Translations under genes and position numbers: made by a program
Part shown: positions 2,324 to 51,083 of the stretch, piece after piece
How positions within the stretch are numbered: position 1 is the first letter of the stretch
Layout: each line of letters starts with the position of its first letter
The notes under the pieces: generated by a model
What the model was told of the DNA's origin: nothing
The model's database searches: none
Seen by the model: the letters and a program-made list of their open reading frames with translations, nothing else
From: Candidatus Eiseniibacteriota bacterium
Lineage (GTDB): Bacteria > Eisenbacteria > RBG-16-71-46 > DASYSL01
Assembly (NCBI GenBank): GCA_031431875.1
Contig: JANPEF010000061.1
Coordinates: 1 to 64,000, forward strand
Direction: 5' to 3'
Length of the DNA: 64,000 bases

Positions 2324-3396
2324 TGCTCCCGCTCCCGCGCTTTCGCCTGCTGCGCCCGCGCTCGCTTTCCGAGGCGCTCGATGCGCTCGCGCGCAATGGG
2401 GCCGACGCCGGGCCGACGGTCGCCAATGCCGACGCGTGGGGCTCACGTCCGGTGCGCCTGCTCGGCGGCGGAACGGACCTCGTGCCGAACTTGAAGCACG
2501 GCTTGCTGGATGTCGAGATAGTGGTAGCGCTGAAAGCGCTACCGGGTTTGAGGGATATCCTGTCCGGCGAAGCCGGACAACTCAGGATCGGCGCGCTCAC
2601 CTCCATCGCCGGTGCCGCCTCCGATTCCGCCGTTGGCGGGACATGGCCCGCGCTCGCGCGCGCATGGGGACAGATCGCGGGACCGCAACTGCGCGCGATG
2701 GGCACCGTGGGCGGCAACCTCTGCCTCGACACGCGCTGCACCTACTACAACCAGACCGCCCACTGGCGCGAGGCGCTGGGCTACTGCCTCAAGCGCGACG
2801 GCACGAAGTGCCACGTCGTCCCCGGCGGCACGCGCTGCGTTGCGGCGATGTCATCGGATGGCGCGACGATGCTCGTCGCCCTGGGCGGCACGGTCGTGCT
2901 GAACAGCGCCGCGCGCGGCGAGCGGGTCGTGCCACTCGCCGACTGGTTCGCGGGCGAAGGCCGGCGCAACATCGTGCTCGCCGCCGACGAGATCCTGACC
3001 GAGGCGCGCGTTCCGGCTCCCGTGCCCGGCGCATTCGCGGGCTACCAGAAGCTGCGGGCGCGCAACGCGATCGACTTCCCGCTGCTGTCGGTCGCGGTGG
3101 CGGGAACGGTCGCGCCGGACGGGACGCTGGCCACCGCACGCGTCGTGGTCGGCGCGTTGGGTGCGAAGCCGCGCGAGGTGACCGGGCTCGATGCCCTCGC
3201 GCGCGGGCAGCTGCCGACGCTCGAAGTGTTCACCGCGCTCGGCGAGGCGGCAAAGAAGCAATGCAAACCGCTGACCAACATCCCGGTCGATCCGGACTGG
3301 CGCCACGCGATGGTGCCGGTGCTGGTGCGCCGCGCGTTCGCCCAGGCGCTGGGCCTGCCGGCCGGGCCGCCCATCCTCGAACCCGTTCCCGCGTGA
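2323..3396 (+). CDS. FAD-binding subunit of the molybdoenzyme, HcrB-like with extra [4Fe-4S] cysteines
   Basis: GGGTDL, GTVGGNLC and the insert CLDTRC..YCLKRDGTKCH..RC. ATG overlaps the upstream stop (TGATG). Confidence 0.9.
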   Translation: MLPLPRFRLLRPRSLSEALDALARNGADAGPTVANADAWGSRPVRLLGGGTDLVPNLKHGLLDVEIVVALKALPGLRDILSGEAGQLRIGALTSIAGAASDSAVGGTWPALARAWGQIAGPQLRAMGTVGGNLCLDTRCTYYNQTAHWREALGYCLKRDGTKCHVVPGGTRCVAAMSSDGATMLVALGGTVVLNSAARGERVVPLADWFAGEGRRNIVLAADEILTEARVPAPVPGAFAGYQKLRARNAIDFPLLSVAVAGTVAPDGTLATARVVVGALGAKPREVTGLDALARGQLPTLEVFTALGEAAKKQCKPLTNIPVDPDWRHAMVPVLVRRAFAQALGLPAGPPILEPVPA

Positions 3397-3403
3397 GGCG
3401 CGC

Positions 3404-4276
3404 ATGACCGACCCCTTCGTCCTCGACCGCGACGTGCCGCGCGCGCTCGTCCAGGTGCGCGCCGCTCGTGTGCCGGCGGTGCTCGCCACGGTCGTCCAGG
3501 TGACGGGCTCTACGCCACAGAGTCCGGGTGCGAAGCTGCTGGTGCTCCCCGACGGACAGCAGGCCGGGACCGTGGGCGGGGGCGCCCTCGAGCACCGCGT
3601 GCTGGCCGACGCAGCGGCGTTGCTGGCTGCGCCCGATGCCCCCGCGACGCAACTGCTGGCGATCAACCTGACGACCGAACTGGGCATGTGTTGCGGCGGG
3701 ACGATGAGCGTGTTCCTCGAGCGCGTGACCATGCCCGCACGGCTGGTCGTGCTGGGCGCGGGGCACATCGCGCTGCCGCTCGCGCAGTTCGCGGCGGGCG
3801 TGGGCTTCACCACCGTGGTCGTCGACGGGCGCGAGGCGTGGGCCGACCCGGCGCGCTTCCCGGCCGGCACGCGGGTGATTTGCGACGAACCCGAGGCAGT
3901 CGTCCACGAGCTGGTGCTCGATGCGGACACCGCCGTGGTCGTCGTCACCCACCACCACCCGCTCGACCAGGCGCTGGTTCGCGCGCTTGCGGGCTCCCGG
4001 GCCGGCTTCTTCGGGCTCGTTGGTTCGGAGTCGAAGCGCAACAAGTTCGTCATGCGCCTGCGCGCGCAGGGACTGAGCGACGAGTCGCTGGCGAGGCTGC
4101 GCTCGCCGCTCGGCGTCCAGATCGGCGCCGTCACGCCCGAGGAGATCGCGCTGTCGATCACGGCCGAGCTGGTGGCGTGGCGCCGCGGGGTGCCGATTGA
4201 TGATGGTATGCCCATACGCGCGAAGCGCGTACGAGAGAGCGCGAGCGAAGCGAACGCTTCGATGGAGCGCGCGTGA
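3404..4276 (+). CDS. xdhC: XdhC/CoxI family molybdoenzyme maturation factor
   Basis: GSTPQSPGAK, GTVGGG, LGMCCGG, GAGHIA, TPEEIALSI. Confidence 0.92.
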   Translation: MTDPFVLDRDVPRALVQVRAARVPAVLATVVQVTGSTPQSPGAKLLVLPDGQQAGTVGGGALEHRVLADAAALLAAPDAPATQLLAINLTTELGMCCGGTMSVFLERVTMPARLVVLGAGHIALPLAQFAAGVGFTTVVVDGREAWADPARFPAGTRVICDEPEAVVHELVLDADTAVVVVTHHHPLDQALVRALAGSRAGFFGLVGSESKRNKFVMRLRAQGLSDESLARLRSPLGVQIGAVTPEEIALSITAELVAWRRGVPIDDGMPIRAKRVRESASEANASMERA

Positions 4277-41034: not shown

Positions 41035-43722
41035 ATGACGCATTGCGTTCGTCGTCATCAATCGTACGTCGCAGTCGCGATCGCCGCGGGTTCGCTCGCG
41101 TGGGCCGCGCTCGGCGGGGCGGTCGCAGCGGTGGGCGCACCGGCTGCGGCGCCCGTCGACTCGGCCGGGACGGTGGGCAGCCGACTGGGCCGCGCTGTCG
41201 TGCCGCTGTCGCAGAAGGTCGAACTCCGCCTCGACCCCGCGTCCCCGGACTACAGCGGCTCGACCACGATCTCGATCGAGGCAGCCGCGCCGTTCCGTTC
41301 GCTGCGCGTGCACGCGAGGGAGCTGTCGGTCGAGACGATCCTGCTCGCGGGCGGCCTCGTGCACGTCGCGCCGAAGTGGGCCAGCGAGACGGACGGGACG
41401 ATCCGTATCACCTTCAGCGAGCCCGTGCCGGCGGGGATCTACCTGCTCACGCTGCGCTTCCGCAACGACTTCAACACGCAGGCCACGAGCCTGTACCGCC
41501 TCAAGGCCGGCGACGACTGGTACTGCTTCACGCAGTTCGAGGCGACCGACGCGCGCGAGGCCTTCCCGTGCTTCGACGAGCCCGAGTTCAAGATCCCGTG
41601 GGACCTCGAGCTGACCATTCCGGGCGGGCACAGCGCGGTCGCGAACACGCCGATCGTCTCGAGCGCCCCGGCCGGCGACGGTTGGACGAAACACGTGTTC
41701 AAGCGCTCGAAGCCCATGCCGACCTACATCCTGGCGATCGCCACCGGGCCGCTCGAGATGACGCCGATCGAGGGCATGTCGATTCCGGGCAACGTTGTGA
41801 CGGTGAAGGGGCAGGCGACGCTCACCGCCGAGGCGAGGCGCGTCGCGCCGCCGATCCTCGCCGCGCTCGAGGCCTACTTCGGGCGCCCGTATCCCTACGA
41901 GAAGCTCGACCTGCTCGCGGTGCCCGAGTTCTGGCCCGGCGCCATGGAGAACGCGGGCGCGATCACGTTCGCCGATGGCGTGCTGCTGCTCGATGACAAG
42001 ACGGCGACCGTCTCGATGCGGCGCTCGCTGGCGTCGATCACGGCGCACGAGCTCGCGCACATGTGGTTCGGTGACCTGGTGACGATGAAGTGGTGGGACG
42101 ACCTGTGGCTCAACGAGTCGTTCGCCTCGTGGCTGGGCGAGAAGGTGACCCACGGCGTGTACCCGGAGTTCGGGATCGAGGACCGCCTCGTGCTCGACGC
42201 GGACGAAGCGATGCTGGTCGACGGTCGACTGAGCACGCGCGCGGTCCGCCAGCCCGTCAAGAGCCTCGACAATCTCCTGCAGTCGGCCGATGCCCTTGCA
42301 TACCAAAAGGGACAGACGGTCCTCGGCATGTTCGAGCAGTGGCTGGGCCCCGACGTGTTCCGGGCCGGCGTGCGCGACTACATCTCTCGCCATGCGTGGG
42401 GGAACGCCGTGGCGGACGACCTGTGGTCGGCGCTGTCGCGCTCGGCGAAGAAGGACGTGGGTGGCTCGATGGGCACGTTCCTCAACCAGCCCGGGCTCGC
42501 GCTCGTCGGGGCCGAGCCGCTGCCGGGCGGCCGGGTGCGCCTCACGCAGTCGCGCTTCCTGCCGGCCGGAACGGTCGCGCCGACACCCCAGCGCTGGTCG
42601 ATCCCGGTCACGCTCAAGTATGGCGGGGCGAGCGGGGCGGCGAAGACGAAGAGCGTGCTGCTCTCCGCGCCGACGCAGGTCGTCACGCTCGAGCCGGGGG
42701 TGAAGTGGGTGTACCCGAACGGGCGCGCCTGGGGCTACTACCGCTGGAAGATGCCCGACGCCTCGATCACCGCGCTGGTCGAGCGGGCCAGCACCTCCCT
42801 CGAGTTGCGCGAGCGCATGGAGCTGACCACCAATGCAGCGGCCTTGCTCGACGCCGGTGCGATGCCTGGCGACACCTACCTGCGCCTGCTCGAGAAGCTG
42901 GCCGCAGACGAGGAGCCCGCCGTGGTCGGCGCGGTGCTCGACGGGATGGAGAAGGTGAAGCAGACGTTCATCACGCCCGAGGTCGAGCCCGCCTATGCCG
43001 CGTACGTCCAGCGCGCGCTCGCGCCGGCGGTGGATCGCTTCGGCCTGACGAGGCAAGCGGGCGAGCAGGAGTCGGTGTCGTTCATCCGCGGGCGCCTGCT
43101 CGGCATGCTCGCCGACGAGGGTCGCGACCCCCGCGCGCGCGCCTACGCCGACTCGCTGGCGCAGGCGTACCTGGCCGACGTGACGAGCGTCGATCCGTCG
43201 CTTGCGTTCACGTCGCTGCAGGTCGCCGCCATGGACGGGGATCCCGCGCTGTGGGAGACCTATCGCACGCGCTTCGAGTCGGCGCCGAACCCCGGCGAGC
43301 GGCGCAACTTCCTTGCGGCGCTGGGCTCGTTCCGCTCCCCGCCGCTGCGCCAGAAGTCACTCGACTACGCGCTCGCCGGCCCGCTCCGGCCGCAGGAGGT
43401 GCTGGCCGTCCCGCGCGCCATGGGCGGCGCCTCCGAGGAGGGCCGGGAAGCGCAGTTCCAGTGGGCGATGCAGAACTACGATGCGATCATGAAGCGCGTG
43501 CCACCCATGTTCGCAGTGTTCATGCCGTTCGTCGGATCCGGCTGTTCCGGCGACCGGCTCACGGCGACGCAGTCGTTCTTCGCCGATCCGGCGCACGCGC
43601 CTCCGGGCACCGAGAAGGAACTGGCAAAGGTGACCGAAACGGTCGAGGACTGCATGAAGCTGCGGGCGCGCGAAGGTCCGCGCGTGCGCGAGTTCCTGCA
43701 GCGAGGTCCGGTTGCGAACTAG
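41035..43722 (+). CDS. M1 family zinc aminopeptidase with ERAP1-like C-terminal domain
   Basis: TQFE..DAR.AFPCFDEP, GAMEN, HELAH..WLNE. Confidence 0.93.
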   Translation: MTHCVRRHQSYVAVAIAAGSLAWAALGGAVAAVGAPAAAPVDSAGTVGSRLGRAVVPLSQKVELRLDPASPDYSGSTTISIEAAAPFRSLRVHARELSVETILLAGGLVHVAPKWASETDGTIRITFSEPVPAGIYLLTLRFRNDFNTQATSLYRLKAGDDWYCFTQFEATDAREAFPCFDEPEFKIPWDLELTIPGGHSAVANTPIVSSAPAGDGWTKHVFKRSKPMPTYILAIATGPLEMTPIEGMSIPGNVVTVKGQATLTAEARRVAPPILAALEAYFGRPYPYEKLDLLAVPEFWPGAMENAGAITFADGVLLLDDKTATVSMRRSLASITAHELAHMWFGDLVTMKWWDDLWLNESFASWLGEKVTHGVYPEFGIEDRLVLDADEAMLVDGRLSTRAVRQPVKSLDNLLQSADALAYQKGQTVLGMFEQWLGPDVFRAGVRDYISRHAWGNAVADDLWSALSRSAKKDVGGSMGTFLNQPGLALVGAEPLPGGRVRLTQSRFLPAGTVAPTPQRWSIPVTLKYGGASGAAKTKSVLLSAPTQVVTLEPGVKWVYPNGRAWGYYRWKMPDASITALVERASTSLELRERMELTTNAAALLDAGAMPGDTYLRLLEKLAADEEPAVVGAVLDGMEKVKQTFITPEVEPAYAAYVQRALAPAVDRFGLTRQAGEQESVSFIRGRLLGMLADEGRDPRARAYADSLAQAYLADVTSVDPSLAFTSLQVAAMDGDPALWETYRTRFESAPNPGERRNFLAALGSFRSPPLRQKSLDYALAGPLRPQEVLAVPRAMGGASEEGREAQFQWAMQNYDAIMKRVPPMFAVFMPFVGSGCSGDRLTATQSFFADPAHAPPGTEKELAKVTETVEDCMKLRAREGPRVREFLQRGPVAN

Positions 43723-44486
43723 CGGTAGCCAGCCTTGATGCGGCCCCACGTCGCCGGAACGGCCGGCGTGGGTGTCTCGTAGGTGATGGTGAGCGCGGGG
43801 CGGAGTGTGGGATCCGTCGATTCGCGGGAGTCGAACTTCTTGACCGTCTGCGCTATCGCCTCGTTGCCGCGCAGCAGCCAGCCGTGGTTGCTCGCAGGCT
43901 CGTCGAGCCACGCCTGCACGTCGGCGACCAGCCCGGGATTCGACGTCCACACGTAGGTTCCCGTTGCGTCGACCGCCAGCGTCGCGCTCGCCGCCGCCGC
44001 GAAGTCGCCCCCGGCCGCGGCCCAGAGGGATCCCGGGAAGAAGGTGTGCTTCCACGTTGCGTCGCCGGCCTGTGCCGGCGCGCCGCTGCCACCGGCGATC
44101 CCGGCGTCCGAGGCGCCCTCACCCCAGGCGGCGCTCGCGCGGTGCAACCCAACGTTCGCGGCTCCGGCACTCGTCTGGCTCATGATCAACTCAAGATCGA
44201 CCGACAGGATCGTCGCGCCGTCGGGAATCGCCGCGGCCACGTTGAACCACAGCAACCCGCGGCGGATGCTGTTCGTGGCCTGGTTGTTGCGGCCGGCGAA
44301 AAAGCTGGTGCCCGCGCCGTTGCTGAGGGATCCAGTAGCGCTCTCGTAGAGCGTATTGTCTTTCGCCGCGCCGATGACCAGCGTCGTGCCGGCCCGCGCA
44401 CCCGGAGCGGGAACGAGCAGGGCGACGAGGACGGCGACCAGCCGGGCCGCGGATCGGCCGCCGCGATGGGCGTGGAACGGGTTCAC
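43719..44486 (-). CDS. Secreted DNRLRE-like domain protein with C-terminal TWGxxKxxYR motif
   Basis: GAGGAG RBS, GTG start, signal peptide; KDNTLYE, RRGLLWF, FDSRE..RPAL; ends PATWGRIKAGYR*. Confidence 0.8.
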   Translation of the reverse strand: MNPFHAHRGGRSAARLVAVLVALLVPAPGARAGTTLVIGAAKDNTLYESATGSLSNGAGTSFFAGRNNQATNSIRRGLLWFNVAAAIPDGATILSVDLELIMSQTSAGAANVGLHRASAAWGEGASDAGIAGGSGAPAQAGDATWKHTFFPGSLWAAAGGDFAAAASATLAVDATGTYVWTSNPGLVADVQAWLDEPASNHGWLLRGNEAIAQTVKKFDSRESTDPTLRPALTITYETPTPAVPATWGRIKAGYR

Positions 44487-44652
44487 GAAATTCTCCTCGA
44501 ATGGGGTCGCCGGCGACCGATCGGCAGGGGAAGGGCCGACGACGAGTATACAACGCCCCCCCTTGCGCCCGCACCTGTGGGCGGGGAGAATGCGGCGTCC
44601 GGCCGTAGGGCTCGCCGTCCGATCATCCACCCTCCAGCTGTTCTGGGGACCC

Positions 44653-46749
44653 ATGCGCGAAGAAGACCTGCTCCGCCTCGTCTGGATCACCGATCCGCAG
44701 ATCGCACCCGCGGGGGATCGCATCGTGTTCGTGCGCGTCATCGTCGACGAGGCGAACGATCGCTACGCGACCTCCCTGTGGATCGCTGATGCCGCCCTTG
44801 GCCGGCCGCGGCCGCTCACCTTCGGGCCCGGCGATGCACAGCCCCGCTGGTCGCCCGACGGCACGCGCCTCGCGTTCGTGCGCTCGCCCGAGCCCGGCCA
44901 GCCCGCACAGCTGTGGGTGATGCCCATGCGCGGCGGCGGCGAGGCCGTGCGGTTGACCGACCTGGTGAAGGGCGCGGGATCCCCGGCATGGTCGCCCGAC
45001 GGCATGCAGATCGCGTTCACCAGCGGCACGAACCCCGAGCTCGACACGCCCGACGCGGAGGCGAAGAAGCCGAAGAACGCCCCCGGGCGGATCGTCGCGC
45101 GGCCCATGGTGAAGCTCGACAACGTGGGTGCGCTCGATCCCGAACACCAGGACCACGTGTGGGTGGTGGCACTCGCCGTCGACGGCGCCGCCGCTGGAGC
45201 GCCGCGCATGCTGACCTGCGGCCGCTTCAACGAGGACGCGCCCGAGTGGTCGCCCGACGGCGCGGGCGTCTGCTTCGTGAGCGATCGCCGGCTCGCACCG
45301 TGGTATGGCCTCGATGATGCGGACGTGTGGTCCGTCGCGGCCGACCGCACGGTCCCGACCGAGAGCGAGGTCACGCTCGTTGCAGACGTGGCGGGCACCA
45401 TCGGCCGCTTCACGCTGGGCGCTGACGGTCGCGTGCTCGCGGTGGGGATGCTGACGCAGGAACCGCCTCGCTCCTACGACCAGCCCGACGTGTTCGTGTG
45501 CGCGCCGCCGTTCCCGCAGCCCACGCCGCACGGGCTCACCCAGGCATACGAGTTCGAGGCGGGGGACTCGTCGATCTCCTCCGACCAGCACCCGCCCCGG
45601 GCGGGCGGCAGCGTTCCGCTGGCGTTCATCGAGGGTGGGGCCGCCGTGCTCACGGTGGTGGGGCGGCACGGCGCGTGCATCCTGGCGCGCATCGGCGCCG
45701 ACGGTTCGGTGACCGAGCTCACGCCCGCCGATCGCGAGATCGTCTCGGGCACCGTGTCGGCCGACGGGAAGTGCGCCGCGGTGATCGTCGGCTCACCGTC
45801 CCGGCCCGGGGTGCTTTGCGCCTGCGACGTGGCGAGCGGCGCGCTGACGCCGTTGTACGACCCGAACGAGGCACTGTTCACCGAATCGAAGCTGGGGAAG
45901 GTCGAGGAGGTCTGGTACCCGTCGTTCGACGGGCAGAAGGTCCAGGGCTGGGTGGTGACGCCGCCCGGGTTCGATCCCGCGCAGAAGTATCCGCTCGTGC
46001 TGCAGATCCACGGCGGTCCGCACGTGGCGTACGGCGTCGGCTTCTTCCACGAATTCCAGGTGCTCGCCGAGGCCGGCTATGTCGTCCTCTACGTGAACCC
46101 GCGTGGCTCGACGACGTACGGGCAGGAGTTCGGCAACGTGATCCAGTTCGAGTATCCAGGCGACGACTGGAAGGACCTGATGGCCGGCGTCGACCTGCTG
46201 GTCGGCCGCGGCTTCATCGACGCGACGCGGATGGGCGTCACCGGCGGATCGGGCGGGGGGCTCCTGACCAACTGGACGGTGGTGAACACCGATCGCTTCG
46301 CCTGCGCGATCACGCAGCGCTGCGTCGCCGACTGGACGTCGTTCTGGTACGGGGCCGATTTCGCGCAGTTGACGAACTTCTGGTTCCGCGGCGCGCCCCA
46401 CGAGGATCCGGCCGACTATGCGCGCCGCTCACCGCTGACGCACGCGGCCCGGGCGAAGACGCCGCTGCTCGTCGTCCACAGCGAGGACGACTGGCGGACG
46501 CCGATCGTTCAGGGGGAGGGGATGTTTCGCGCCATGCTTGCCCAGCGCGTGCCCACGGCGATGATCCGCTTCCCGGGCGAGGGCCACGAGCTGTCGCGGA
46601 GCGGCGCGCCGTCGCGGCGGGTGCAGAACCAGCGCGTGATGCGCCGCTGGTTCGATCGCTGGCTCCAGGGCAAGGACGCGCCCGAGTTCGACGATCCGCT
46701 GGCCGCGGCACCGGCGCCGCTTCCGGCAGGGGCCCGCGCGAAGGGCTAG
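44653..46749 (+). CDS. S9 family peptidase
   Basis: WSPDG repeats, KYPLVLQIHGGP, NPRGSTTYG, GGSGGG, HSEDDWR, GEGHELSRSG. Confidence 0.92.
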   Translation: MREEDLLRLVWITDPQIAPAGDRIVFVRVIVDEANDRYATSLWIADAALGRPRPLTFGPGDAQPRWSPDGTRLAFVRSPEPGQPAQLWVMPMRGGGEAVRLTDLVKGAGSPAWSPDGMQIAFTSGTNPELDTPDAEAKKPKNAPGRIVARPMVKLDNVGALDPEHQDHVWVVALAVDGAAAGAPRMLTCGRFNEDAPEWSPDGAGVCFVSDRRLAPWYGLDDADVWSVAADRTVPTESEVTLVADVAGTIGRFTLGADGRVLAVGMLTQEPPRSYDQPDVFVCAPPFPQPTPHGLTQAYEFEAGDSSISSDQHPPRAGGSVPLAFIEGGAAVLTVVGRHGACILARIGADGSVTELTPADREIVSGTVSADGKCAAVIVGSPSRPGVLCACDVASGALTPLYDPNEALFTESKLGKVEEVWYPSFDGQKVQGWVVTPPGFDPAQKYPLVLQIHGGPHVAYGVGFFHEFQVLAEAGYVVLYVNPRGSTTYGQEFGNVIQFEYPGDDWKDLMAGVDLLVGRGFIDATRMGVTGGSGGGLLTNWTVVNTDRFACAITQRCVADWTSFWYGADFAQLTNFWFRGAPHEDPADYARRSPLTHAARAKTPLLVVHSEDDWRTPIVQGEGMFRAMLAQRVPTAMIRFPGEGHELSRSGAPSRRVQNQRVMRRWFDRWLQGKDAPEFDDPLAAAPAPLPAGARAKG

Positions 46750-48087: not shown

Positions 48088-48798
48088 ATGAAGCGCTTGT
48101 CATTCCTGTCCGCGTTTGCCCTCTTGGCCGCGCCCGCCCTTGCCTTCGCCGCTCCGAATGCCGGCACCTACCAGACCACCGACCTCGGCGGCCAGCTCCT
48201 CACCGGGCGCGCCTCGTCGCACCGGACGGGGATCAACTCCGGCCTGCCGCATGTCCTGCACTCGCAGTCGTGGAACGGCTCGACGCTCGGCACGCAGTGG
48301 GAGTTGCGCTGCGCGGTCGAGAACGCCGCGTTCGGCATCCAGGACAACCGCGTCAACGGCACCGGCACCATCGTCTACAGCTCGACCTACACCGGCGGCC
48401 AGTTCGAGCTGTACAACACCGGCGGCGCCTGGGGTGACGGCGTGGCCGCGCTCGGAACGACGAGCATCATCTCGACCGTGCAGTTCGTGAACATCAACAA
48501 CGTCTCGACGCCGGTCGCGTCGGTCGTCAATGCCAACACCTCGGGTGACTTCGGCGGCGGCTGCGTCCTCACCTTCGCGATCGCGAATGGCGTCGGCGTG
48601 GGCGAGACGACGAGCCTCGACGTTTCGATCCAGAAGCCGGCCGACTACCCGACGTTCCTCGCCGCCAACTGCGGCCTCGCCTTGCCCAACGAGCAGTTCG
48701 GCACGTGGGGCACCATGATCACCGGGACGCTGCGCATCGATTGCTCGGTCGACGCAACGACTTCGACCTGGGGCGCGGTGAAGAACATCTATCGCTGA
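48088..48798 (+). CDS. Secreted hypothetical protein with C-terminal TWGxxKxxYR motif
   Basis: GGAGG RBS; signal peptide MKRLSFLSAFALLAAPALAFA; ends TSTWGAVKNIYR*; the stop is completed by the IS end. Confidence 0.88.
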   Translation: MKRLSFLSAFALLAAPALAFAAPNAGTYQTTDLGGQLLTGRASSHRTGINSGLPHVLHSQSWNGSTLGTQWELRCAVENAAFGIQDNRVNGTGTIVYSSTYTGGQFELYNTGGAWGDGVAALGTTSIISTVQFVNINNVSTPVASVVNANTSGDFGGGCVLTFAIANGVGVGETTSLDVSIQKPADYPTFLAANCGLALPNEQFGTWGTMITGTLRIDCSVDATTSTWGAVKNIYR

Positions 48799-48831
48799 TA
48801 TGGCATGACCTCTTGTCAAGCTGGTCCACAC

Positions 48832-48857
48832 GCGACCACCGCTCCGGCGGTGGTCGC
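48832..48857. terminator. Perfect 11-bp hairpin in the IS right end
   Basis: gcgaccaccgc-tccg-gcggtggtcgc. Confidence 0.5.
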
Positions 48858-48873
48858 TGTGTTTTGGGGAGAT

Positions 48874-49095
48874 GAGCTTCTGGAAGGACGGACGCGGAAG
48901 TCGCCGACGGCGTGTCACTCTGATATCCGCGGGTTGCCTCGAAGGATCGGGGCCGAGCCGCATGACCGTAGTTCGTCGGGAGGTACCGCAGTCTAGCATC
49001 GTGAGTCGGTGGCTCCGGTGAACCGGAGTCCCGTCGCGTAGCGATATCGCGGGTTATCTCACGCATCATCCCCTCGTCCGTCCATCCTGAAGCTC
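48874..49095 (-). ncRNA. Putative bridge RNA / seekRNA of the IS110 element
   Basis: Closing stems gagcttc/gaagctc and ggacggacg/cgtccgtcc; two AACCCGCG motifs; segments matching the reconstructed target (TATCGCTA, CTAG) and donor junction (TACGGTC approximately TAGGGTC; ATATCAG). Confidence 0.75.
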
Positions 49096-50215
49096 AGCCT
49101 TGGGCCTTCGCGGCTTCCGGCCGGGCCAGTGCGGCCCAGAGGAAGCCGGCGAGCTCGCGAGCAATCGCGATGACGATCTTGTTGCGGTGCTTGCCTCGAG
49201 CCTCCATCTGCCGGAATCGACGACAGAGCCGCTTCTGGGCCCGATCGGCCAGGGCAATCATGGCCGGCGGCTGGCCAAGCCGCCGGTTCGCCAGGTCCTT
49301 GCTGACCCGAGCCTTGTGGCGGTAGTTCCAGGAGCCTTCGATCAGAGTGCGGCGCACGTGCTGGTTGCCGGCGCGCGTGATCCCGCCGCGGCGATGATGA
49401 TCTCCACTGCTGGCTTCCGAGGGCACGAGCCCGAGAAAGGCCATGAGCGAAGGAGCAGACGGAAACCTCCGAACGTCATGAAGCTCCGACAGCAAGATCA
49501 TGGCGTTCACCGTGTCGATCCCGCGAAAGCAGCGGAGCCAACCGACTCGTTCGCGCCACGGCTCTCCCTGGGAGATCGCCAGGAGCTCGACATCGAGCGC
49601 GGAGCGCTGGGCCTCACGCTGCTCGACCGTGAGCAGGTAGTCCTCGAAGACGATCCGCTCGGAAGGGCGTTCGAACACCAGGCTCGTGAGCCAGGTCCGA
49701 TGGGCCTGAGACCACGAGTGTGCTTGCCCCGTGCCGAAGACCAGCCCGTGCCGCAACAGGAAGTGCGTGAGGCGGTGACGCGCCCGCGTGAGATCGACGC
49801 GCGCATCGTCGCGGCAGCGGCACAGATCCCGTACCGCCTCCTCGTCAACGCTCGGAGGATGGACTTCGGTCAGAAGCCCTGCGCGAAACAGCTCGGCCAG
49901 CTTGCGCGCATCCCTGCGATCGGTCTTGATGCGATCGCCCGGCCGAAGCGGCGTCAGGGACGGCGCGATCACCGTGCACTCGCAGCCCTGAGCGATCAGA
50001 TCACGCTGAAGCACGTAACCGCAGGGTCCTGCTTCGTAACAGCAACGAACCGGTCCCTGCGCCTGGGCCTTGATGCGCTGGACCAACTTGCGGACTTGGG
50101 CCGCCTGGTTCGCGATCTGCCCATTCCACGGCTCCCGATCCTGGGGCTTGAGTACGCAAAACGAGATCGTGTTGCGATGGACATCCAGACCGACGATGGT
50201 GCTAGGCTCTTGCAC
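49094..50215 (-). CDS. IS110-family transposase/recombinase
   Basis: GLDVH, YEAGPCG, KTDRRDA (DEDD); GLVPSEASSG with the conserved Ser; GITRAGN, IAIARELA; GGGAG RBS before GTG. Confidence 0.95.
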   Translation of the reverse strand: MQEPSTIVGLDVHRNTISFCVLKPQDREPWNGQIANQAAQVRKLVQRIKAQAQGPVRCCYEAGPCGYVLQRDLIAQGCECTVIAPSLTPLRPGDRIKTDRRDARKLAELFRAGLLTEVHPPSVDEEAVRDLCRCRDDARVDLTRARHRLTHFLLRHGLVFGTGQAHSWSQAHRTWLTSLVFERPSERIVFEDYLLTVEQREAQRSALDVELLAISQGEPWRERVGWLRCFRGIDTVNAMILLSELHDVRRFPSAPSLMAFLGLVPSEASSGDHHRRGGITRAGNQHVRRTLIEGSWNYRHKARVSKDLANRRLGQPPAMIALADRAQKRLCRRFRQMEARGKHRNKIVIAIARELAGFLWAALARPEAAKAQG

Positions 50216-50363
50216 GGCCGGCTCCCTTCGTATGCGGCTCTGCTGCTTCAAGCAGCAAACCGCGTCAGAGTGGATCAAACCACCCGGTCGTTCCCGGGGT
50301 TCCTGGTTGGGAACGACGGTACGAACCGGGGGCCGGTCATGCCATAGGGTCTAGAGTCGGGGC

Positions 50364-51083
50364 CTAGTCCGGCAGCGTCGAGACCTTGAACGGCGTCGGC
50401 GGAGACGAGGTGACGACCTTGCCGCCTTCGTCCCGGGCGTCCACGCGGACGAGCAGCGCCTGTCCCGCAACCGGACGGAAGTCGAGTTCGGAGGCCGGCA
50501 CGTCGAGCGCCGAGTCGCCGCGCACGCTCCGGTATGCCAGCTCTTCGAGGCGGTCCGAGTAGACGCGCACCTCGTAGGTGTCGGCGCCCGGAACCGCGTT
50601 CCACGAGACGTGCAATCCGTCGACATCGAGCCCGGCCGAGCGGACGCGCAGCATCGGCGCATTCGCATCGCTCGATCCGCCGCGCAGGACCTGCGATGGA
50701 TCGTGCTCCGCATGGCGCGGCCACAGAACGACCCCGCCCACCACGATTGCCGCCACCACGAGCCCCAGCGCGGGCCGCAGTGCCGGCGCGAACAGCGCGG
50801 CCCACCACGAGGTGCGCGGCGTCGCGCGTAACGGCGCGTGGGGTGCAGGGTCGGGTTCGGAAGGCGCGCCGATCGTCCGCGCCAGGAACGCCGACAGCCG
50901 GGCGTCCGCCGCCGCGACGTCCGGCAGCGCGGCGTCGGCGCCGGGATCCATGAACCGGGCGTAGGCATCGAGCAGCGCGCCGCAGCGCGGGCACTGCGCG
51001 ACGTGGGCGCGGCGCGGATCCGTCGCCGGCAGCTCGGCGACCGTGGCCAGTTCCTCGACCGGCATGCAGGGCGTGACGGTCAC
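50364..51083 (-). CDS. Putative zinc-binding membrane anti-sigma factor
   Basis: HVAQCPRC (HxxxCxxC ZAS motif), single TM helix, extracytoplasmic tail; overlaps the sigma stop. Confidence 0.8.
   Translation of the reverse strand: MTVTPCMPVEELATVAELPATDPRRAHVAQCPRCGALLDAYARFMDPGADAALPDVAAADARLSAFLARTIGAPSEPDPAPHAPLRATPRTSWWAALFAPALRPALGLVVAAIVVGGVVLWPRHAEHDPSQVLRGGSSDANAPMLRVRSAGLDVDGLHVSWNAVPGADTYEVRVYSDRLEELAYRSVRGDSALDVPASELDFRPVAGQALLVRVDARDEGGKVVTSSPPTPFKVSTLPD

Follow-up and report, generated by a model that had tools for sequence, protein, structure and literature searches.

The window analysed here is a stretch of 64,000 nucleotides (C61:1-64000) from the assembly of a Candidatus Eiseniibacteriota bacterium, which comprises 3.75 Mb in 166 contigs with 70% G+C (genome G000). 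On its minus strand, at 48797..50352, lies an insertion sequence (IS) of 1556 bp, one copy of a CT core included (100% self match). This element is intact, is of the IS1111 type within the IS110 family, and carries its transposase gene on the minus strand. It abuts the stop codon of a gene for a secreted protein, and our subject is how it appears to reach that codon and to replace it silently.

The host gene (48088..48798, plus strand) encodes a 236-aa secreted protein, which starts with MKRLSFLSAFALLAAPALAFA and ends with TWGAVKNIYR. No family in Pfam or NCBIfam matched it. Its 3' end reads TGG GGC GCG GTG AAG AAC ATC TAT CGC TGA, with TAT at 48790-92, CGC at 48793-95 and TGA at 48796-98. The left half of the target, TATCG plus the core CT, occupies 48790..48796 (plus strand), so that the TGA stop consists of the target's T and the first two bases of the element, GA. 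At the other end, a second core CT (50351-52) is followed by AG (50353-54), the remnant of the original TAG stop (50351..50354, plus strand), and the right junction reads GGTCATGCCATA GGGT CT AG AGTC. Excising 48797-50352 from the window gives TAT CGC TAG. An earlier prediction, made from this stretch alone, had read both junctions and the restored stop codon in the same way, and the reading was correct.

The transposase gene (49094..50215, minus strand) probably starts with GTG at 50215, which gives 373 aa; the longest open reading frame (ORF) reaches to 50278 (394 aa). Its product matched the model NF033542, 'IS110 family RNA-guided transposase', with 236.5 bits (cut-off 140) over profile positions 1-340 of 343. 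In Pfam, it matched PF01548 (DEDD_Tnp_IS110, the N-terminal RuvC-like DEDD domain; 8e-20, residues 29-175 of the 394-aa ORF) and PF02371 (Transposase_20, the C-terminal domain with the conserved Ser-Gly; 4.7e-19). The motif GLVPSEASSG at 49403-49432 (residue 283) fits the pattern GL-P----S(t)G given in the excerpted text of PMC11187229. By these sequence criteria, membership in the IS110 family and the IS1111 group is supported, in agreement with the original prediction. Relatives with solved structures in the PDB were distant (ISCro4 2.5e-7, by pairwise HMMER alignment; IS621 3.2e-6, a weak similarity). This was the sole NF033542-type gene assembled in G000. A transposase search of genome contigs returned one locus only, in a metagenome-assembled genome of Planctomycetota (44% identity), which was of no help for the flanks.

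Both ends of the element carry subterminal inverted repeats, which are perfect (12/12 bp). At the non-coding-region end, the repeat TATGGCATGACC (48799..48810) is preceded by a 2-nt terminal extension, GA (48797-98). At the transposase end, GGTCATGCCATA (50335..50346) is followed by a 4-nt extension, GGGT (50347-50). The extensions are thus asymmetric, GGGT(+CT) and GA, i.e. 4-6 and 2 nt. The non-coding region 3' of the transposase gene measures 297 nt (48797-49093), versus ~135 nt upstream of the GTG at 50215.

The ends of the insertion sequence were repeated at five other contig ends of G000, and the left-end sequences of the copies were 100% identical over 133-136 nt. TAYCGCT precedes the element on contigs C18, C59 and C60 as well. 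The left junctions there read TAC CGC TGA|TATGG behind proteins ending ...SWGRVKGLYR (C18), ...SWGGVKAIYR (C60) and ...LVKRFGSTYR (C59). Right junctions with CTAG after the element were found on C104 (...ATAGGGT CTAG AGCGG, where the element is 90% identical over 140 nt) and on C46 (...ATAGGGT CTAG TTTCG). With the window copy included, all four assembled left junctions were TAYCGC|TGA and all three right junctions CT|AG. A fourth right junction was a loose contig end after CTAG in the public run X1. Orientation was constant in all G000 copies, with the non-coding-region end beside the host stop codon.

In this genome, the target 9-mer TAYCGCTAG was unoccupied at 6 places in 3.75 Mb, and TAYCGCTGA was found at 17, four of these with the element. 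All six free TAYCGCTAG sites were in-frame Tyr-Arg-stop ends of ORFs with 184-477 open codons and a G+C content at third codon positions (GC3) of 0.76-0.86. One of them lies in the window, where TAC CGC TAG (43719..43727, minus strand) ends a second gene with the same C-terminal tail, as had been predicted; its ORF (43719-44741) encodes a DNRLRE-domain protein ending ...TWGRIKAGYR. The flank pattern is far beyond chance, since all four left junctions were TAYCGC|TGA and all six free 9-mers were Tyr-Arg-stop ORF ends.

Most of these sites belong to one protein motif. Tails of the form [ST]WGxxKxxYR were found at five of the six free sites and three of the four occupied ones. The remaining host, on C59, is an outer-membrane beta-barrel protein (PF13505, 8.2e-16) that ends ...STYR and has no tail motif. 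Because this copy sits on a barrel gene merely ending in ...STYR, the specificity lies in the DNA 9-mer and not in the protein motif. A six-frame scan of G000 recovered 38 ORFs ending in [ST]WGxxKxx[YW]R, the window examples being 48769-48798 (plus strand) and 43719-43751 (minus strand). The bodies of the tail proteins differ, some having a DNRLRE domain or a weak match to CBM_4_9 and others no such match. The [ST]WGxxKxx[YW]R tail itself is spanned by no model in Pfam or NCBIfam and may be an undescribed C-terminal sorting signal.

The 3' non-coding region contains a predicted guide RNA. Alignment A1 of 19 elements, folded with RNAalifold, gave a structured core of a putative seekRNA or bridge RNA at 48905..49051 (minus strand), with two stem-enclosed internal loops. 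The consensus has 31 pairs, 10 of them with compensatory changes, and the apical hairpin varies in sequence while its pairing is kept. The sequences TATCGCTA and CTAG each stand in a loop segment of the region. The first candidate target guide, AUAUCGCUA (49039..49047, minus strand), is predicted to pair with the top strand, is identical to the coding strand TATCG-CT-A, and covaries with the flanks. The second, CUAG+AC (48991..48996, minus strand), would pair with the bottom strand and comprises the part of the target with the stop codon, followed by two bases from the start of the element. These two guides face each other in one internal loop, between an invariant outer stem and an inner stem. 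A putative donor guide, GAUAUCAGAG (48918..48927, minus strand), sits in the second internal loop and corresponds to the element's own end ATATC, the core AG and the A of the other end; in relatives, it follows the terminal extension (TC, CT or GC). In the transposase sense, the contexts of the three guides are ...CCGCG AUAUCGCUA CGCG..., ...CUAGAC UGCGG... and ...CCGCG GAUAUCAGAG UGA....

Relatives of the element were used to compare guides with flanks. The RNA region was found in 21 of 102 genomes of the same order, and in another search of genomes the element was found in 23 of 61. Between guide and flank, 31 elements gave 157 matches at 186 informative positions. When the flanks were permuted among elements 20000 times, 102 +/- 6.3 matches were obtained, and none of the 20000 shuffles reached the observed value. 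The 19 tail-targeting copies alone gave 102/114 matches versus 86.1 +/- 2.9 shuffled (0/20000), and 92/102 versus 75.9 (0/20000) when a single G000 copy was retained. For nine copies at type IX secretion system (T9SS)-type ends, the figures were 40/54 versus 32.1 shuffled (27/20000). Guides tracked CGC, CGG, CGT, CGA, His CAC and Phe TTC flanks across relatives from the order and from metagenomes. Examples are ATATCGGTA with TAT CGG (G005), ATTCCGCTA with TTC CGC (G075), ATATCGATA with TAT CGA (G040), ACTGCGCTG with CTG CGC TGA (G051) and CGTACACTA with CTA CAC TAA (G008). A FastTree phylogeny built from the 19 RNA cores after masking of the guide columns had two well-supported tail-targeting groups and weak deep nodes (0.19-0.66).

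The stop codon itself is also represented in the RNA. The second guide was C plus a stop codon in 78 of 100 parsed elements (C+TAG 51, C+TGA 24, C+TAA 3), and the donor guide implied an end restoring a stop in 109 of 125 (TGA 95, TAG 14). Two relatives (L008, L010) have A or G, in agreement with their first guide, directly ahead of the core T at the left junction, and keep the C at the right junction. In IS621, the first core base can likewise differ (AT, GT), at lower efficiency, according to the excerpted text of Durrant et al. (2024; PMC11208160), and this tolerance fits the A and G found here.

Could the recombinase protein recognise the site directly, through a likeness between target and element ends, with the matching non-coding segments unused? 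The repeat word TGGCATGAC directly after the free target on C46 is in its favour, as is the fact that the guide RNA is a predicted one here. However, target and element ends have only the CT core in common. The segments in question sit within a conserved internal loop and change along with the flank, with the transposase family unchanged, and an RNA requirement has been demonstrated experimentally for IS1111 and IS110 members (excerpted texts of PMC11187229 and PMC11208160). We regard direct reading by the protein as barely credible. A filter by selection, in which insertion is loosely specific and only gene-sparing copies survive purifying selection, is very unlikely too. Bacterial genomes do purge disruptive insertions, and some relatives are at sites with 2-3 mismatches to their own guide. 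Yet such a filter predicts insertions anywhere between genes, and not at the same base of the same 9-mer in four of four copies with one orientation, nor would it make guide segments fit the flank and vary along with it.

Uninterrupted sites were present in two congeners. The left gene has an ortholog in G001 (86% identical), which ends AAC ATC TAC CGC TAG; the DNA downstream of it is unrelated and has a terminator-like hairpin of its own. In G002, the DNA homologous to the right flank of the window is preceded by ...AEPQFSWGGVKAIYR TAC CGC TAG. By blastn, positions 1-2364 of this stretch (L039) correspond to C61:52721-50351 and positions 2363-3857 to C60:22206-20693. It is a clean empty site: adding the element and one CT to the G002 state yields the G000 state. 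There, the two flanks from G000 meet with an overlap of 2 nt, which fixes the element boundaries. The G002 ortholog of the left gene (79% identical; L036, on G002:C41) reads TAT CGT TGA CATGGCATGACC CGT GGTCATGCCATG GGTT CTAG. This relic of 35 bp consists of the two inverted repeats only; both junctions are intact, the element body is gone, and the remainder forms a perfect 12-bp hairpin directly behind the stop codon. The central claim of the original prediction, a programmed silent insertion at Tyr-Arg-stop, is borne out by the junctions, by these empty sites and by the two guide segments in one internal loop.

The same comparison changes the view of the window copy. By G002 synteny, the right flank of the window partners the gene at the end of C60 and not the gene at 48088-48798, and the native downstream DNA of the left gene, as found in G002, matches the very end of contig C126. 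It follows that either two insertions were mis-joined across the repeat in C61 or two copies have recombined; each junction is sound alone. The original prediction had taken the window copy for one insertion at K-N-I-Y-R-stop, a claim that fails, since the flanks are not cognate. Its expectation of an empty allele with TAG held in that both congeners carry an uninterrupted TAC CGC TAG at orthologous positions, but the exact allele TATCGCTAGAGTC is doubtful in light of the synteny. It probably never existed as such, and the window probably holds two half-sites from two insertions of one element.

For the window copy only, and without rivalling the mechanism, we slightly favour an assembly effect, in which C61 joins the flanks of two insertions across a 1.55-kb multicopy repeat. 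The true partners would then be the C60 end with C61:50353 onward, and C61 up to 48796 with an unassembled stretch leading to the C126 end. Besides the synteny and the match at the end of C126, public sequencing data agree with it. Twenty runs contained part of the stretch, three of these runs being possible sources, and contigs of four were compared with the locus. These contigs reach ~26-28 nt past both junctions and then end, and the element body forms a separate unitig of higher depth. In run X1, the depth was 67.1 for the element unitig versus 11.8 and 17.3 for the flanks, and in run X4 it was 74.2 versus 10.9 and 13.6, which fits a multicopy repeat, although such depth is not a copy number. 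The unequal flank depths in both runs also point to an assembly effect. On the other hand, the same picture would result if two copies had undergone homologous recombination in the cell.

Landing sites in relatives were then tabulated, as far as the junction at the non-coding-region end was definable, which was the case for 25 element copies in 17 genomes. Eleven copies were on a [WF]GxxKxx[YF][RH] tail (three in G000 and one each in G040, G046, G096, G074, G075, G005, G043 and G051), and one was on an outer-membrane protein gene (L004). Eight occupied the stop codon of ORFs with T9SS-like tails (L009, L010, L012, L013, L014, L052, L054, L055). Among these hosts, L010 and L014 scored above the TIGR04183 cut-off and L012 had a sub-threshold match to Por_Secre_tail; the others were assigned by tail sequence only. 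One copy was at a former stop codon with none restored, giving a 12-aa extension (L011), and four were at no evident gene end (L007, L019, L048, L053). Eight of the eleven tail copies thus lie outside G000, each in a different genome of the order.

In metagenome contigs, the exact 22-mer of the element's end had no match. A degenerate 22-position pattern derived from the conserved RNA core gave at least 120 matches, with flanking DNA for 80, and 54 of those 80 loci had a usable junction (at least 45 nt of flank). Ten of the 54 junctions were on the tail motif, including ATACCGTTA with TAC CGT and ATATCACTG with TAT CAC, a Tyr-His tail. In 27, the junction was on a stop triplet with the frame open through the available flank, and ~15 of these had T9SS-like ends (...AVVVR, ...VLLVR). 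Short frames accounted for 11 and junctions restoring no stop for 6. Only the tail motifs carry weight in this set, because open frames are common in high-G+C DNA and other frames are often open too. Distant sub-families that share the RNA core have other repeats, GGGCGTGCCATA and GGTCCTTCCATA (L093, L100, L111, L120, L160, L161; L061, L073, L091, L104, L119). Their flanks recur as well without being the tail motif (AGCTGCGAAGC..., AGCTAG...), and these sub-families therefore probably have other targets.

The flanks across genome and relatives support the original prediction, with all G000 junctions on target half-sites and 11 of the 25 genome-derived junctions on the tail. The proposal that a multicopy C-terminal motif serves as the target is supported with one amendment. 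The 38 tail ORFs, the shares of occupied and free sites with the tail, the further elements in other genomes and the metagenome junctions all speak for it, but what is recognised is the DNA 9-mer and not the motif.

The link to tails and stop codons might also be a by-product, i.e. the element is RNA-guided to a 9-mer and the association has no adaptive meaning, as TAYCGCTAG merely occurs only there in a genome with 70% G+C. One of the four copies is indeed on the outer-membrane barrel gene, which shares only ...YR-stop, and with all six free 9-mers being Tyr-Arg-stop, any element with such a guide would look tail-specific. Against this, where the same tail is spelled with other codons (CGG, CGT, CGA, CAC, TTC), the guides of relatives follow, and the stop codon that sister lineages occupy belongs to a different sorting tail, that of T9SS sorting-domain genes. 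Moreover, the second guides spell a stop codon and the donor guides restore TGA or TAG in the proportions given above, and a terminator-like hairpin, described below, faces the host gene. We consider a by-product improbable.

As a whole, the observations are in our view very probably explained by an active or recently active IS1111-type element that is RNA-guided to TAYCGCTAG and replaces the stop codon silently. Direct support comes from comparing the family, the anatomy, the flanks, the empty sites, the guide-to-flank complementarity and its covariation across relatives. By analogy with work on IS1111 and IS621, the 3' non-coding region would encode a seekRNA or bridge RNA, with 48905-49051 transcribed and bound by the transposase. 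The 5' guide UAUCGCUA would pair with one target strand, from the Tyr and Arg codons through the CT core to the A of the stop, and the 3' guide CUAG with the other strand across the stop codon, so that both together would specify TAYCGCTAG. TAT and TAC would both be accepted, because a U opposite the Y position allows wobble. While the first loop would pair with both strands of TAYCGCTAG, the second may pair with the abutted ends of an excised circle, and the DEDD recombinase would exchange strands at the CT core. Since the core T is the first base of the stop and is followed by the element's terminal GA, TAG would become TGA and the host protein would be unchanged. The displaced AG would remain at the far junction. 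In G000, the 9-mer occurs only as Tyr-Arg-stop and mostly on ~38 tails of secreted proteins, and the tail would therefore offer several harmless landing sites.

Several points weigh against this explanation. Five of the 25 genome-derived junctions restore no stop or lack an evident gene end (L007, L011, L019, L048, L053). Pairing is imperfect: all seven positions matched in 10 of 31 elements and at least six of seven in 25, and six elements had two or more mismatches. Parsing of the second guide by regular expressions failed on 41 of 141 elements, and in the CGG and CGA variants the C of this guide conflicts with the first guide. A stop triplet at the junction is trivial, as the core T followed by GA or AG gives a stop anyway, and only the frame and the tail motif are informative. 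The relatives are kin, so the counts overstate independent events and the figures describe one clade; metagenome loci may also repeat populations already in the genome set. The two flanks of the window copy are not cognate, and the locus as assembled may not exist in the cell. No circle junction, joint or empty-site variant was seen at the locus in the public contigs, which cannot show rare forms. Rfam gave no match for 48600-50500 at E up to 1, and the whole case is built by comparing sequences.

The hairpin lies within the element. Together with its tail, TGTGTTTTGG, it spans 48832..48867 on the plus strand (hairpin 48832-48857), with a stem of 11 bp, 9 of them G-C, and a loop of 4. It is oriented in the host-gene sense and starts 34 nt past the new TGA stop, and the 91-nt stretch containing it folds at z = -4.0. 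Relatives have a hairpin at the same place followed by a T-rich tail, with stem sequences that differ between lineages. In a scan of 109 elements, 61 showed, near that end, a hairpin with 8 or more pairs. The best hairpin was followed by a tail rich in T (4 or more of 10) in the host-gene sense in 46 and in the element sense in 7. The hairpin and its U-tract would probably end the host transcript and shield the element from antisense read-through.

Tn7, which inserts at attTn7 behind glmS, and the homing guides of CRISPR-associated transposons also read a conserved 3' end of a coding sequence and insert without harm to the gene. Their target is an essential gene present in single copy, the insertion lies tens of bases behind it, and the machinery is unrelated. 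In contrast to both, the landing site here is a multicopy motif and the crossover would be inside the stop codon.

Closer counterparts are the IS1111 elements with seekRNAs treated by Siddiquee et al. (2024; PMC11187229), whose excerpted text names ISEc11, ISKpn4/ISPst6 at attC, ISPa11 at repetitive extragenic palindromic (REP) sequences, and IS4321/IS5075 at Tn21-type inverted repeats. The element described here shares with them the DEDD transposase with GL-P----SG, the subterminal repeats and the long 3' non-coding region. As in their seekRNAs, the top-strand match (49039-49047) lies 5' of the bottom-strand match (48991-48996) on the minus strand, an order known here from sequence alone. Use of one orientation and one short target, and natural reprogramming among relatives, are common to both as well. 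The same excerpts give subterminal repeats of 11-13 bp, extensions of 7 and 3 (or 6 and 3) nt and transposases of 330-350 aa for IS1111. In our element, by contrast, the extensions are 4 (+2 core) and 2 nt and the transposase has ~373 aa. Further differences are that it targets coding sequence (the last two codons and the stop), restores the stop, and brings a terminator-like hairpin.

The IS621 bridge RNA (Durrant et al. 2024, PMC11208160, as excerpted) also has a target and a donor internal loop, and here, too, 9-base and 4-base target guides overlap at the CT core. IS621 differs in that its RNA is in the left end upstream of the recombinase, its subterminal repeats have 2-3 bp, and its natural targets are REP-like. 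In the excerpts of both papers, the known targets of IS1111 and IS110 elements are a short linear site, attC sites, REP sequences and transposon inverted repeats. A full-text search of a literature collection without most subscription journals, and without the supplementary target tables of PMC11187229 and PMC11208160, found no report of IS110 or IS1111 elements aimed at stop codons or C-terminal motifs.

If the proposed explanation holds, this would be a new class of target, in which a protein motif supplies a repeated site and the crossover falls inside a stop codon that is restored. The landing site would cost the host nothing, and every gene that newly acquires the tail would add one. RNA guides would then be able to track a feature at the protein level, as the CGC, CGG, CGT, CGA, CAC and TTC versions of one tail suggest. 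For engineering, the relatives offer natural guide/target pairs, variants of the first core base included, and a design with a built-in stop and an insulator terminator. For annotation, the element would account for contig breaks behind genes of secreted proteins and for short hairpin relics after their stops.

More tentatively, and with some doubt on our part, a clade of elements in this uncultured order may inhabit the final codons of C-terminal sorting tails. Guides in this clade would evolve along synonymous spellings of the motif with one guide kept on the stop codon, and the element would supply a stop and a terminator. Decayed ends would stay behind as terminators of secreted-protein genes, and the process may have shaped stop codon use in tail genes. 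If true, a mobile element and a protein-sorting signal would have accommodated each other over the long term, and the case would be a natural model of how bridge recombinases can insert at gene ends without a scar.

Stop codon use was tallied for the 38 tail ORFs, which end in TAG (18), TGA (13) or TAA (7). In a crude set of 1336 long, high-GC3 ORFs of G000, TGA made up 61%, TAG 34% and TAA 4.6%. A TGA stop was present on 9 of 16 CGC tails versus 4 of 22 other tails, a raw tally with small numbers for which TGA as a scar of past insertion was considered.

The outer end of the non-coding region carries a TTGACA hexamer (48814..48819, minus strand), identified by alignment, which faces outward and lies exactly 17 nt from the element terminus. 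In most relatives, a TTGAC-like hexamer is aligned at this position. In other IS1111 and IS110 members, the abutted ends create a promoter. Here, the predicted joint would read ...CCATAGGGT-CT-GATATGG... on the plus strand of the window. No -10-like hexamer follows the outward TTGACA at the abutted ends, and a sigma-70 promoter scan found no promoter.

A second variant of the element is present at L005 (G000:C104:1-140). Across the final 140 nt on the transposase side, its identity is 90%, and the repeat and the CTAG junction are unchanged. Probable decayed ends of related elements were seen behind other tail genes of G000. C67 (minus strand, offset 20000) retains TGA TATGGCATGAC, GTCAAG and a GC hairpin. 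On C18 (plus strand, offset 10945), a hairpin resembles the terminators of G040-type elements. On C46 (plus strand, offset 1902), TAG is followed by TGGCATGAC, and on C2 (minus strand, offset 21803) the sequence reads TGA TATGGCC.

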